Shown here piece after piece: positions 12,001 through 18,000 of a stretch of 64,000 nucleotides of DNA (the first letter of the stretch is position 1; each line of letters opens with the position of its first letter). The notes beneath the pieces were generated by a model. That model saw only the letters and a list, made by a program, of their open reading frames with translations. It ran no database searches and was not told the DNA's origin. Location: positions 224,001-288,000 of the forward strand of contig CM000431.1 of assembly GCA_000165345.1 (NCBI GenBank), in the 5' to 3' direction. The position numbers and the translations under genes are program-made.

Positions 12001-15000
12001 CCTTATTGTTCAACTTATCCAAAAGGTTATTTTGCTTTCTGGTTAACTTATGATTCGATTACAAATAAGTACATTATTTCAGTTGAGAATAATACCAAGA
12101 AATTAGTAGAAATTGAGGCTGATATTACTAGTGATTCAGTATTTAATAAGATTATCCCAGTAATAGACACTAATGGAGGAGCAGGAGTTGACATTTCAAA
12201 GACTTTCAGTATTTGGCAATTGACAAATATTAAAGAAATTCCAATTGATACCGCTACTACCACTACTACAACAACAACAACAACAACTTCTACAACAACA
12301 ACAACAACAACAACAACAACAACAACTACTACTACTACTACTACTACTACAAGTACAACTTCCACAACAACAGAAAGACCATGGTATGAAATAGAATTGG
12401 ATGAATGTCCTTTAGAATTAAATAAACCATGTAGAGGAATTAATGGAAAATTAGATAAACCGTTTAATCATGGTAATTTATTATGGATTAATGGAACTTT
12501 AGGAAAAGATATTAATGGGAGATTATTATTAGATGATACAAATTTGATGGGATATGATATAATGAATGATAATAAAAAAATCATGACTTTATTATTAAAT
12601 GAAACATTTATTGGAGTTTATGATTTAACAAAAGATCAAGAATATTATTCATATTATACAAATGAAAGTTTAGCATATAATGGTATGGACTTTAAGATAG
12701 GAATAGGATGGAGTAAATTAGGATTATTTATTTTGAATGAATATTCAAGTAGTTTAATAGAAATTCAAACACATTCAGATTATAAATTTAATAAAGTATT
12801 ATTAAGAGGACCAACAATGGATAAATATGTGAATTATATATTATTAGATAATTTCTTATATCCAAATGGAATATTATATTTAGGATATGATACATGTACA
12901 TTTAATGGAGAATGTAATGTAAAATCTTTAGAATGTAGTTCTCAAGTATTAGAAGGATTATGTTTAAAAAAGTTACCAGGAATTACTTGGAAAATGGAGA
13001 CTATTTTAGCACAAACAAATGTAAATAATGGAACTTGGGGATTCGATTATTCTATTAATGGTTTAATAAATTTATATACATTAAATAATGGAATAGAGGA
13101 TGTATTGGTAATTTATTTCTTTAATAATAGAGTAGCTTTACAAGATTTAATAAATTCAAATTCTTGTTCTGGTCCTTATCCTGAGAATTCTCAAGTCAAT
13201 GTTGGTGATTTAATCAAATGGTCAATAGGAATAGATTCTTTAATGAATTTATATTTAAATATATTAGATGATAATGTAACAGGAAAGAATTATACTGTTT
13301 GTTATATAAAGAATTTGAATCAATTTGGTGGTGGATTTAAATATTTATCTCCATTAGGTTATAGACCAAATTATTCAAGATTTATTCAAGAAATATCACC
13401 AAAATTCCAAGATGGTGGTTATGAATCAACATCTAAACCTGATAATGGTTATTATTTCCCAGAAAAAGATGTAAATACTGGACAATATAATCCTGATGAT
13501 AAATATGGTGAAAATAGTTATCCATTTTTCCCACCAGGAGTTCAACCAGCTCCAATTGATGGAGATGAGAATAATACACCTCCAAATTATCATTATAATA
13601 CAACAACTGGCCAATTTGAGAAGAATGAAGATCATCCAAATCCTGATGAAATTAATCCATTCCAACCAAATCATATTGTTGATGGTATTTCAGAATGTGA
13701 TCTTTACTTATTCTCAACTTGTAATGCAACATCTACTAAATTTATGCCAGATGGTACTATATTTAAACAAGGTTGGACATTATTTGTAATGATTAATACA
13801 GGAGTTCCAGATTATGATCCAAATAATGTAAATAATAATTATAATTATAGATATGAATTTATTAGTAGTACTAATAGTAATACTGGTGGTGGTACATTAT
13901 CAGATAAATTAATATTATCATTGGAATATAATAATGAAACAGTTACATTTAGGAATGAAATAACAGGTGAGGAAGATGTTGTAGGTTCTCCACAATGTGG
14001 TCCATACTGTTCAACTTATCCAAAAGGTTATTTTGCTTTTTGGTTAACTTATGATTCAAAATATAATTACTTTATTATATCAGTCAATAGTAATAATGAT
14101 TATTTAACATCAATTTCAGCTGATAATACTGATATGATTTTTAATAAGATTATTCCAAGAGGAAATAACGTTAATAATAGTTATAATATTTGGCATTTAA
14201 ATAGTCAGAATAGGTTGCCTGTTTCAATAGCTACTACTACTACTACCACAACGACTACTACAACTACGACGACGACTACTACGACAACAACGACAACTAC
14301 TACCACTACTACTACCACTACAACAACGACTACTACTACTACTACTACCACAACTAGTACTACTACCACTACTACAACTACTACCAGCACTACTACGACG
14401 ACGACTACTACGACAACAACGACAACTACTACCACTACGACTACTACAACTACCACCACAACAACTACTACGACAACTACTACTACCACAACCACTACTA
14501 CGACAACGACAACAACCACCACAACAACAACAACTACTACTACTACCACTACAACTACAACAACTACAACAACTACAACCACTACGACTACCACTACTAC
14601 AACAACTACTACTACCACCACTACTACGACAACGACAACAACCACCACTACAACAACAACTACTACTACAACCACCACTACTACAACAACAACTACTACC
14701 ACTACTACTACAACAACAACTACTACTACTACTACTACTACGACAACAACAACTACCACTACTACCACAACAACAACAACAACAACTACTACTACCACTA
14801 CTACTACTACAACCACCACAACAACTACTACGACAACAACAACTACCACCACTACTACAACCACAACCACTACGACTACTACAACCACCACAACTACTAC
14901 AACCACTACTACTACTACCACAACAACAACTACTACTACTACAACTACGACGACGACTACCACTACAACTACTACAACTACTACAACTACGACAACGACA

Positions 15001-18000
15001 ACAACCACCACAACAACAACTACTACTACTACTACAACCACCACTACTACGACGACGACTACTACGACAACAACCACCACTACAACAACAACTACTACGA
15101 CAACAACAACTACCACAACAACTACCACTACCACCACAACTACTACCACTACTACAACTACAACCACCACAACTACTACAACTACCACTACTACCACCAC
15201 TACTACAACCACAACCACTACGACTACTACAACTACTACAACCACTACCACTACTACAACCACTACCACTACTACTACCACTACCACTACCACTACCACC
15301 ACAACTACTACCAATCCTCCATGGGACCAGATAGTTCAAGATAATTGTGAATTAGAACCAAATAATCAACCATGTAAAGGTTTTAATTCAACTATCCCAT
15401 CAATAGTCAATCAAGGAAATCTCTTCTGGATTGATTCTAATATTGCTTATTATTCTCCTAAAAATTATAATATCCGAAAATTATACTTTACAGAAAATAA
15501 TAATCCAATTTCAAATGATGGTTATTATTGGATGGGATATAACTTCATGAAAGATAACGATCCTGTATTTACTCTTTTATTCAATGAAACTTATCTAACT
15601 ATTAAAGATTGGAAAGGGAAACAAGAATATTATTCACCTTATACTAATGAAAAACTTGCTTATAATAATATGAACTTTACTATAGGAATTGGATTAAGTA
15701 GATTAGGACTCTATTTAATGAATTCCAAATTACAAAGTTTAATACAAATTCAACCTCAATATGATTATTCATTTAATCATGTCAAACAATTATTATATGA
15801 TAATCAAGTTATTACTAATTATTTATTACAAGATGGTTTCCTTTATCCAAATACTCTTTTATATGAAGGATATGAAAAATGTTCATTATATAATAATTGT
15901 CTATCAAATAAATTAGAATGTAATTCTCAAGTTCTAACTGGTATTTGTTCAACTTTATCTCCTGGATTAAATTTAGAATTTGAAACAGAAATTAAATCAA
16001 CAAATCTTAATAATGGTACTTGGGGTGAAATATTTAAACAATCTGATTTATTAAATACTTATATTATTAGTTCCAATAATGAAGATCAATATATTATTTA
16101 TATATATTCCAATAGAATTGCTATTCAAGATTTAAATAATTATATTAGTTGTTCTGGTCCATATCCTAATGGTAATTTAATTCATATTGGATCTAAACTT
16201 ATTTGGAAAATTGGTTTTGATTCATATTATTCAATATATTTAAATGTATATGATCAAATAAATCATGAATATTATTCAATATGTCAACTTAAACCTGTTA
16301 TTCATCATATTACAAGTCTAGATCTTATTAATACTGCTATTACTACTACTACTAATAATAATAATAATAATAACAATAATAATAAAAATAATACAAGTAA
16401 TACCTTTGGAATAGATTCTATTGATTATATTTATACAAGAGGATATAATCCATCAAATACTAAATTTATTCAATATATTAATAATTTCCCAAGAGGTGGT
16501 TATAAATCTTCATCATCTTCAAATTCAAATCCAAATCTAGTCACTTCTTATTATTATCCTTATTTTGATAAATCTATCAATGAATTTAATCCATTATATA
16601 ATTATGGTAAAAATTATGCATTCTATCCACCTGGTATTAAACCTGCTCCTATTATTGGAAATTATCATACAACTCCTACAAATTATCATTATAATACAAC
16701 AACTGGCCAATTTGAGAAGAATGAAGATCATCCAAATCCTGATGAAATTAATCCATTCCAACCAAATCATATTGTTGATGGTATTTCAGAATGTGATCTT
16801 TATTTATTCTCAACTTGTAATGCAACTTCTGCAAAAATTATGCCAGAAGATACTATATTTAAACAAGATTGGACATTATTTGTAATAATTAGTACTGGTA
16901 TTCCTGAATATGATAATAATTCTAATAATATTGATCTTTATAATTATAAATATGACTTTGTTAATTTTGATAAAGATACTGGAAATGAAGAAATTATATT
17001 GTCTTTATTACTTAGAAATGAAACTGTTACTTTAAAAAATCATATTACTAATATAGAAAAAACTGTTGGTTCTCCACAATGTGGTCCTTATTGTTCAACT
17101 TATCCAAAAGGTTACTTTGCTTTCTGGTTAACTTATGATGAAGATAATGATCTTTATGAAATCTCTATTAACTCTAATACAGAAATTTTACTTAAATTAC
17201 CAGCTTCAAAACAAAAATTCAATAAAATAATTTCTAGATCCAGCTCTAATACTAATACCAACCCTAATCCAAATCCCAATAATACTACTTTCAATGTTTG
17301 GTATTTAACAAATGTTAAACAAACTCCTAAATCTATCTCTACTACTACTACTACCACAACAACTCCACCATGGGATAAAGTTGAAAAAGAAGTTTGTGAT
17401 CTTTCAGAAATATTTATGCCATGTCAAGGATATAATGCAACTATTGATCCATATATTAATCTTGGTGATTTAATTTCTATGAAATTTATTATTGAAAAAG
17501 AATGTAATTGTATTAATAAAATTAATCATCTTGGTAATAATTATTGGTTAGGATTTGATTTCAATCATAATGATGATAAAATCTTATCAATCTTCTTAAA
17601 TGAAAGCTTTATATTAATGTATGATTGGAAAAATCATCAAGAATATATATCTCCATTTACAAATGAATCACTTTCTTATGATCATATGGATCTTGAAATA
17701 TTAATAGGTTGGAGCCGACTTGGATTATTCTTAATGGATAATAATCATAATGGATTAATACATATACAAAATATACCAGATAATAAAATTAATAAAATTA
17801 AACAACATTCTAATGAACAAAAAACACTTATAAGATTTGAATTAATTAATAAACAATTCTTATATCCTAATGAAATTTTATATCAAGGTTATCATACTTG
17901 TTCATTCTATAATGATTGTTCTACTGAAATCATTTCTTGTTCAAGTCAAGCACTTATTGATACATGTAATAAACCACATCCTGGTATGAATTGGATTATT

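Follow-up and report, generated by a model that had tools for sequence, protein, structure and literature searches.

Short duplications within the threonine repeat of cgd3_720, a giant mucin-like gene of Cryptosporidium parvum

The window carries the C-terminal part of cgd3_720

The window, a stretch of 64,000 nt of C. parvum DNA, opens inside a giant reading frame that is free of in-frame stop codons between window base 1 and 29154 (Table 1). In P0060, a fragment covering the N-terminus of the C. hominis protein, the window start corresponds to residue 1979; the 1,978 upstream codons and the 9,718 codons seen here add up to 11,696 aa, the length that CP044420.1 gives for the product. Seven downstream ORFs match proteins of C. 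parvum Iowa II or IOWA-ATCC exactly, including CPHLJ_3g790, 3g810 and CDPK1. In agreement, the nearby genes are cgd3_790, cgd3_810 and CDPK1 of C. parvum chromosome 3, synteny is kept from cgd3_730 to cgd3_920, and the gap from the giant gene to the following 419-aa gene is the same as on CP044420.1. The gene shares with the cgd3_720 orthologue group its place directly upstream of cgd3_730 with the downstream gene order kept, its size of ~11,700 aa, the signal peptide (seen in the orthologue) and a single outsized Thr repeat. As this tract is already annotated in cgd3_720 on C. parvum chromosome 3, our finding is a rediscovery: the tract is the known 'pronounced Thr repeat' of this giant mucin-like gene and no new kind of element. 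The published annotation gives the repeat a length of 308 aa (PMC3305300), whereas 360 residues are found here; gene, chromosome and the single outsized run are the same, and the difference may stem from drift between strains, collapse in the earlier assembly or another mode of counting.

Table 1. Features of the cgd3_720 locus discussed in the text (window coordinates)
Feature	Position	Strand	Remarks
cgd3_720, C-terminal 9,718 codons plus stop	1..29157	+	ORF open from window base 1; N-terminal 1,978 codons upstream of window
Thr/Ser spacer, 39 residues	12256..12372	+	second-longest; boundary of modules 6 and 7
Module 7	12379..14232	+	618 aa, folded; directly upstream of tract
Poly-Thr tract	14233..15312	+	1,080 nt; spacer between module 7 and module 8
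47-nt exact block, copy 1	14263..14309	+	15 whole codons
47-nt exact block, copy 2	14392..14438	+	lag 43 codons
17-codon block	14491..14541	+	includes the repeated 23-mer
44-nt exact block, copy 1	14842..14885	+	partner copy at 15190-15233, lag 116 codons
44-nt exact block, copy 2	15190..15233	+	exact repeat of 14842-14885
Module 8	15313..17370	+	686 aa, folded; directly downstream of tract; modelled as galectin-like beta-sandwich domains
Non-modular C-terminal region	28111..29034	+	conserved with C. andersoni and C. muris; alpha/beta, then acidic tail (low-confidence model)

A hydrophobic, signal-peptide-like segment is present at the N-terminus of the C. hominis (P0060) and C. andersoni orthologues (Kyte-Doolittle 2.2-2.3), as called by a hydropathy scan of the orthologues rather than by a dedicated predictor; the C. 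parvum N-terminus itself lies outside the window. By this measure, the protein has the access to the secretory pathway that marks a mucin-type O-glycoprotein. No transmembrane segment was detected in the 9,718 aa of the window, where no stretch of 19 residues reaches a Kyte-Doolittle value of 1.6, and the C-terminus is acidic and hydrophilic. According to the same scan, the window part of the protein does not fit a membrane mucin of the GP900 type.

Threonine identity is kept while third codon positions vary

Translation of 14233-15312, in frame with the giant ORF, bears out the initial annotation, which had described a 360-codon tract made up solely of 358 Thr and 2 Ser. Reading frame and cgd3_720 locus likewise agree with its proposal that the poly-Thr run is coding and spaces two modules of a mucin-like protein of Cryptosporidium. 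The spacers elsewhere are indeed as short as had been claimed: at the remaining module boundaries, 13 Thr/Ser runs measure 5-39 residues. The codons are ACT (160), ACA (100), ACC (65), ACG (33), AGT (1) and AGC (1). That these are interleaved and do not form a pure trinucleotide repeat was also correct: the sole array reported by TRF has a period of 3 with 79% matches, the longest run of a single codon is 7, and the uninterrupted 3-nt unit of a microsatellite is lacking. On the reverse strand, two ORFs of 369 and 371 aa overlie the tract; they result from the ACN periodicity, read as NGT or GTN codons, and were rejected as genes.

At the first codon position the tract is 100% A and at the second position C in 358 of 360 codons, while the third position has an entropy of 1.80 bits. 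Thus, Thr identity is kept almost perfectly while third positions are scrambled; the 720 first and second positions hold just two non-synonymous states, both of which are Ser. Of the nine single-base changes open to an ACN codon, six replace the amino acid, and third-position entropy is near-maximal; the pattern hence calls for purifying selection on residue identity. The tract also differs in codon choice from its surroundings, as ACC and ACG make up 27% of its codons as compared to 6.4% in the rest of the gene, an enrichment of about four times, and 4.5% in the other linkers.

The tract contains short block duplications but no array of 42-codon units

The repeated blocks quoted in the initial annotation lie where it had placed them, i.e. 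a 47-nt block at 14263 and 14392 and a 23-mer at 14500, 14626 and 14989. The 17-codon block that includes the latter recurs at 14617-14667, at a lag of 42 codons and with one synonymous change, and a third copy begins at 14986 (pairs 14497/14986 and 14623/14986). The longest exact repeat in the tract (47 nt) exceeds that of codon shuffles (29.8 +/- 3.4), and seven pairs of exact 12-codon repeats were observed where 0.06-0.21 are expected (p <= 0.001). Exact repeats of at least 8 codons cover 234 of the 360 codons (65%) as compared to 73 +/- 31 (about 20%; maximum 165) under a first-order Markov null, and 29 of the 33 ACG codons fall inside repeats. Repeats within the tract are thus longer and more numerous than expected by chance, showing that the internal block duplications are genuine.

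The further claim that the tract grew by units of roughly 42 codons did not hold. Duplicated blocks measure 10-17 codons and occur at many different lags; only two block pairs lie 42-43 codons apart, with flanks matching at chance level, while other pairs have lags of 116, 163, 144, 218, 89 and more. TRF found no array with a period near 126-129 nt in the tract, nor does codon autocorrelation rise at lag 42-43 (lag 41, z = 1.7; top lags 1 and 133). We therefore rejected a minisatellite or VNTR with a 42-43-codon (126-129 nt) unit, against which TRF, autocorrelation and block flanks all speak. The tract is a patchwork of short, 10-17-codon internal duplications.

The tract differs between species and coincides with an INDEL hot spot

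At the same junction, C. hominis carries an orthologous tract of at least 72 codons. The flanks of the two tracts are 98.6% identical; within the tracts, third positions agree in only 44% and the two have no block of at least 10 codons in common, indicating that the codon pattern has turned over between C. parvum and C. hominis. In the orthologues from C. andersoni and C. muris, the matching site holds no more than a Thr-rich linker of some 24 residues. Indels of 5 aa and 22 aa between species lie in Thr linkers, as do three of four in-gene indels within the last 8.7 kb. The C. hominis contig with P0001 stops 6.5 kb short of the tract.

The initial annotation had named the tract a prime site for length polymorphism and assembly problems, and contig breaks, varying product lengths and an INDEL-dense bin all agree. 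Two C. hominis short-read contigs begin within the orthologous tract, and the C. meleagridis gene models (4,504-4,508 aa) approximate the length of the part following it. The annotated product comprises 11,696 aa in one C. parvum assembly, 11,621 aa in another and 11,496 aa in C. tyzzeri. The flanks of cgd3_730 that were compared (10 kb) reach to about 5 kb from the tract in every chromosome-level assembly, and the differences of 75 aa and 200 aa thus refer to the product as a whole. The 240-245 kb bin of chromosome 3, which includes cgd3_720, is an INDEL hot spot (PMC9317183), and by arithmetic the tract occupies ~241.3-242.3 kb on CP044420.1, inside this bin.

The flanking modules are modelled as galectin-like domains

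The protein is modelled as about 15 diverged modules of ~620 aa that are joined by short Thr-rich linkers and would adopt galectin-like beta-sandwich folds. The structure model is of medium confidence (mean pLDDT 64), and identity to galectins is 7-14%. Modules 7 and 8 matched no Pfam family at E <= 1, and hence do not belong to the galectins by sequence; together with the C-terminal region, they yielded nothing in Pfam beyond one sub-threshold HmuY match. Homologues of the modules are confined to Cryptosporidium. Protein searches with modules 8 and 7 retrieved just three incomplete sequences, from C. hominis and C. canis, and none of these crosses the module 7/8 junction. A reading of the two C-terminal alpha/beta units as SEA-like, which would be a hallmark of mucins, was dropped in view of a pLDDT of 53 and Foldseek matches that were generic ferredoxin-like and had E > 1e-3. 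With MIC1-GLD and M2AP of T. gondii, the modules share a likeness at fold level only, given the pLDDT of the model, the low identity and the lack of a Pfam match.

Comparison with known mucins

GP900 (cgd7_4020) resembles cgd3_720 as a secreted Cryptosporidium glycoprotein with Thr arrays, located at aa 304-640 and 797-908, and its locus is an INDEL hot spot as well (PMC9317183). However, GP900 comprises about 1,900 aa with a transmembrane helix close to its C-terminal end, whereas the far larger part of cgd3_720 in the window is devoid of such a segment; its consecutive Thr runs are reported to span 33-155 residues as compared to 358 Thr in 360 residues here, and the two proteins have no modules in common. 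The PTS/VNTR domains of animal mucins (MUC1, MUC2) can also be likened to the tract: they are Ser/Thr-rich, O-GalNAc-bearing extended spacers with folded domains on either side, whose length is polymorphic by gain and loss of repeat units. In contrast to these, the cgd3_720 tract lacks Pro and a definable repeat unit and is essentially homopolymeric at the protein level, and it is flanked by modelled galectin-like sandwiches instead of VWD, CysD or SEA domains.

Expression and predicted glycosylation

Transcripts of cgd3_720 are absent at 2-24 h of culture, and 93% are found at 48 h (PMC3305300). In this respect, too, the gene differs from GP900, a micronemal sporozoite protein. RNA-seq reported over-expression of cgd3_720 in oocysts or sporozoites (PMC7193590), which fits carry-over from the zygote and also a role in the sporozoite. 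In females, a second wave of gene expression includes mucins and glycosyltransferases (PMC13657310). Since the gene is not transcribed until 48 h, the time at which sexual stages appear, the giant protein would most likely act in what the female gamete or zygote secretes, in or within the oocyst.

With 358 Thr and 2 Ser, the tract provides the long Ser/Thr-rich domain of a mucin-type O-glycoprotein, albeit with Pro absent. By analogy, it is probably O-glycosylated and may form a rigid stalk of ~90 nm (360 x 0.25 nm = 90 nm). O-GalNAc has been found on GP900 by mass spectrometry, and consecutive Thr of Gp20 are nearly saturated by C. parvum O-GalNAc transferases (PMC5549699). Dense occupancy of the tract is nevertheless not guaranteed, since one Gp900 poly-Thr peptide was only lightly modified, with 3 HexNAc on 13 Thr (Haserick et al., PMC5549699).

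Proposed explanation and alternatives

We consider it probable (about 0.8) that the tract is a Thr linker of cgd3_720 which grew by short duplications, whose Thr residues are kept by selection and which serves as an O-GalNAc-bearing spacer in a secreted, genus-specific protein. The linker between modules 7 and 8 would have grown into a cryptically simple ACN repeat of 1,080 nt, changing through repeated duplications and deletions of 10-17 codons that may arise by slippage or by unequal exchange between dispersed near-identical blocks. Selection would purge nearly all replacements of Thr, leaving third codon positions alone to drift. Having entered the secretory pathway by means of its signal peptide, the giant protein would be loaded with GalNAc along the Thr run by the O-GalNAc transferases of the parasite. 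The result would be an extended, protease-resistant rod that holds apart the N-terminal half of the modules, with about 6,700 aa, and the C-terminal half, with about 4,600 aa.

Alternatively, the tract might be the product of neutral runaway expansion by slippage, tolerated between independently folding modules, in which case its length would be functionless and Thr would be kept by concerted turnover. The 13 other linkers suffice with 5-39 residues, the site is short in C. andersoni and C. muris, turnover of the codon pattern between C. parvum and C. hominis is rapid, and product length differs among assemblies. Moreover, 65% of the tract consists of recently copied blocks, so that much of the third-position diversity could have been amplified rather than independently mutated. 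We nonetheless regard this account as unlikely, because near-maximal third-position entropy meets merely two non-synonymous states, both Ser, in 720 positions and because this junction has retained a long tract ever since C. parvum and C. hominis split. That the 360-codon length was inflated or collapsed by mis-assembly of low-complexity sequence is scarcely credible, even though the older annotation has 308 aa, C. hominis short-read assemblies break within the tract, exact repeats of 44-47 nt would confuse short k-mers and the C. meleagridis models suggest a break near it. The reading frame is intact and stop-free, a tract exists at the same place in an independent species, and the total of 11,696 aa is exactly that on CP044420.1, the C. 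parvum IOWA-ATCC assembly, which is described as a PacBio, Illumina and Nanopore hybrid and for which the main text of the paper mentions no remaining compression on chromosome 3 (PMC8744675).

Going beyond the proposed selected spacer, the protein could be a self-complementary lectin-mucin, in which the galectin-like domains of the ~15 modules and the GalNAc-decorated Thr linkers, including the ~90 nm spacer, would allow its molecules to cross-link with one another or with further mucins of the parasite, forming a hydrogel or tether within the oocyst, with rapid changes in the length of the central spacer tuning mesh size or reach. We give this idea a slim chance; if true, differences in tract length among isolates would have a phenotypic effect on oocyst robustness or excystation.

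Significance

What our analysis adds to the known tract is its duplication pattern, the codon constraint, the comparison with C. hominis, the product lengths and the module models. These findings leave the current understanding of mucins or repeat evolution unchanged, and their importance is mainly practical. The tract breaks short-read assemblies and splits the models of a gene that is among the largest in Cryptosporidium, and by coinciding with a reported INDEL hot spot it could be used as a long-read length marker between isolates. Beyond this, cgd3_720 encodes an uncharacterised, genus-specific giant and presumed glycoprotein whose expression starts with the sexual stages, and its modelled galectin-like modules, divided by what is presumably a long mucin rod, represent a starting point for tagging and deletion experiments.

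Results

The poly-Thr tract is read in frame within a giant ORF of 9,718 codons that is open from the first base of the window (Table). Seven ORFs located downstream match proteins of C. parvum chromosome 3 exactly, among them the locus tags 3g790 and 3g810 and CDPK1, and, judging from these matches, the giant ORF is therefore cgd3_720. The window start aligns with residue 1979 of the N-terminal fragment of the giant protein from C. hominis, and the sum of 1,978 and 9,718, that is 11,696 aa, is exactly the product length annotated on CP044420.1 of strain IOWA-ATCC. This agreement argues for a tract of 360 codons in the IOWA-ATCC assembly as well, a long-read hybrid (PMC8744675). 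A 10-kb stretch compared with CP044420.1 showed 99.98% identity and no indels; short of full identity, the window may derive from a different IOWA-type assembly. By arithmetic from the cgd3_730 coordinates, the tract maps to ~241.3-242.3 kb of CP044420.1, within the 240-245 kb bin of chromosome 3. Across 101 C. parvum genomes, the four regions with the highest INDEL density hold three mucin-like genes, and cgd3_720, in this bin, is one of them (PMC9317183). The gene has also been described as a mucin locus with high polymorphism in C. hominis (PMC4407392); another study predicts it to encode a mucin and finds it over-expressed in oocysts or sporozoites (PMC7193590). Its transcript was undetectable at 2-24 h, and 93% of the signal was found at 48 h (PMC3305300).

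Table. Coordinates of the features described (window positions unless an accession is named)
Feature	Position	Strand	Remarks
Giant ORF	from 1; stop codon 29155-29157		
Poly-Thr tract	14233-15312	+	1,080 nt
47-nt block	14263; 14392		
23-mer	14500; 14626; 14989		
Two ORFs overlying the tract	14205-15339	-	369 and 371 aa
Modules 1-13	850-26910		
Second insertion in module 8	~15472		12 residues
Insertion specific to module 8	16306-16407		34 residues, with a run of ten Asn
Stretch compared with CP044420.1	20389-30388		
Non-modular C-terminal region	28111-29154		
C. hominis tract end, JIBM01000035.1	1-218		72 Thr codons before NPPWDQ
C. hominis tract end, JIBN01000060.1	1-145		48 Thr codons before NPPWDQ
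C. hominis UdeA01, LN877949.1	1-8770		
C. meleagridis gene beside the cgd3_730 orthologue	13753-21056	-	model of 4,504-4,508 aa

The descriptive part of the initial annotation was correct: translation of the tract yields 358 Thr and 2 Ser, the quoted 47-nt and 23-nt blocks recur at the reported positions, and the 13 remaining Thr/Ser runs at module boundaries comprise 5-39 residues. Six codons are used (ACT 160, ACA 100, ACC 65, ACG 33, AGT 1, AGC 1), with A at the first position in 360/360 and C at the second in 358/360, while third-position entropy reaches 1.80 bits out of a possible 2. Of the nine single-base changes open to an ACN codon, six alter the residue; the scarcity of replacements, only two and both to Ser, therefore indicates at the sequence level purifying selection for a hydroxy-amino acid. 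ACC and ACG together account for 27% in the tract; their share in the other linkers is 4.5%, and over the remainder of the gene it is 6.4%. Of the 33 ACG codons, 29 lie within repeated blocks. Most simply read, the rare codons owe their abundance to block copying. The two minus-strand ORFs overlying the tract were rejected as genes; they are a mechanical outcome of the ACN periodicity, because GTN and NGT codons contain no stops.

Internal repetition exceeds chance. The longest exact repeat measures 47 nt versus 29.8 +/- 3.4 nt in codon shuffles (maximum 44), a length that a first-order Markov model reaches in ~1/300 trials. Exact 12-codon repeat pairs number 7 versus 0.06-0.21 expected (p <= 0.001), and 234/360 codons fall within exact repeats of at least 8 codons, as compared to 73 +/- 31 in the null (maximum 165; 500 trials). 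Thus, growth by block duplication, as proposed initially, stands in so far as repetition is concerned, but the suggested unit of ~42 codons does not. The repeated segments are only 10-17 codons long and recur at scattered lags (43, 116, 42, 163, 144, 218, 89 codons and others). Sequences flanking the two pairs with a lag of 42-43 match at chance level only, codon autocorrelation of the tract has no peak at 42-43, and TRF reported nothing except an imperfect period-3 array. Instead of 42-codon units in an array, the tract thus consists of numerous small duplications that form a patchwork.

Both C. hominis draft contigs listed in the Table begin within the orthologous ACN tract, ahead of module 8, which starts with the conserved NPPWDQ. 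This shows that short-read assemblies break within the tract and, by sequence, that the sister species carries a long tract at the same junction. In both drafts the giant gene appears as several partial models annotated 'hypothetical protein', e.g. a C-terminal piece of 1,872 aa. The 3 kb following the tract are 98.6% identical between C. hominis and C. parvum, whereas the last 72 tract codons match at the third position in 44% versus 32% by chance, share no block of at least 10 codons and align, with gaps, no more than ~2.4 SD above shuffles. The comparison shows a fast turnover of the codon pattern. Between the two species, indels of 5 and 22 aa fall in Thr linkers, as do three of four in-gene indels in the last 8.7 kb when compared with C. 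hominis and C. tyzzeri. Annotated products comprise 11,696 aa in IOWA-ATCC, 11,621 aa in C. parvum HLJ and 11,496 aa in C. tyzzeri; the HLJ difference lies somewhere upstream of window 20389. In length, the C. meleagridis model comes close to the 4,614 aa of C. parvum sequence beyond the tract, which suggests a break of this model or assembly at the tract or in its vicinity. The chromosome-level C. hominis UdeA01 sequence lacks a gene call across the 3' 8.7 kb of the giant ORF, even though it is 97.9% identical to the window there at the DNA level.

Self-BLAST of the giant protein revealed 13 complete modules of ~620-690 aa and partial ones at both ends, with a Thr/Ser run at every module boundary. 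Identities amount to 34-49% relative to the first module and 36-65% among the modules; upstream of the tract, modules 2-7 share 45-65%, versus 38-44% for modules 9-13 downstream. Module 7 is flanked by the two longest linkers (39 and 360 residues), and module 8 exceeds its paralogues by ~60 aa because of its two insertions together. A profile of the 13 modules retrieved only 10 representatives from 1.84 billion proteins, all from Cryptosporidium (C. hominis, C. canis, C. bovis, C. andersoni and C. muris), and no Pfam family matched. The complete orthologues of C. andersoni (3,518 aa) and C. muris (3,523 aa) contain about two full modules, with a Thr-rich linker of ~24 residues; module array and giant tract therefore both grew on the lineage from which C. 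parvum and C. hominis derive. AlphaFold models module 8 as all-beta (mean pLDDT 64), and Foldseek groups this model with tandem galectins, laminin LG and neurexin LNS domains (E down to 5e-9), a likeness at fold level only that derives from a medium-quality model and is no evidence of sugar binding. In the non-modular C-terminal region, identity to C. andersoni and C. muris amounts to 34-35%, and two beta-alpha-beta-beta-alpha-type units are predicted ahead of an acidic Asp/Glu/Asn tail (pLDDT 53, too low to assign a fold). The orthologues start with a hydrophobic signal-like segment, and the 9,718 aa of the window contain no transmembrane-like segment and end in an acidic C-terminus. Thus, the protein is predicted to be secreted without a membrane anchor, in which it differs from GP900.

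Discussion

Taken together, our data show the tract to be a coding, apparently selectively maintained and rapidly rearranging poly-Thr spacer in a modular, predicted secreted protein transcribed from 48 h. Its length could possibly reflect neutral runaway expansion in a tolerant linker, which would however leave the near-perfect retention of Thr unexplained. That the length is an assembly artefact is unlikely, given the agreement with the long-read product length and the independent tract of C. hominis; an older annotation gives 308 aa for the Thr repeat as compared to 360 here.

The Thr run may be O-GalNAc-modified and would then act as an extended rod, whose 360 residues, at the usual mucin-domain extension of 0.25 nm per residue, would span ~90 nm. 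C. parvum O-GalNAc transferases nearly saturate the Thr runs of Gp20, whereas one Gp900 Thr peptide is only lightly modified (PMC5549699). Females express a second wave of mucins and glycosyltransferases (PMC13657310), which the 48-h onset fits; a role in or inside the oocyst is a guess from this timing alone.

The observation of the tract is accurate yet already known, as it is a named feature of an annotated gene. Incremental additions are the patchwork structure, the codon bias, the interspecies turnover, the galectin-like modules and the expansion relative to gastric species. The tract is mainly of use as a marker for long-read work and as an entry point to an uncharacterised sexual-stage giant glycoprotein.
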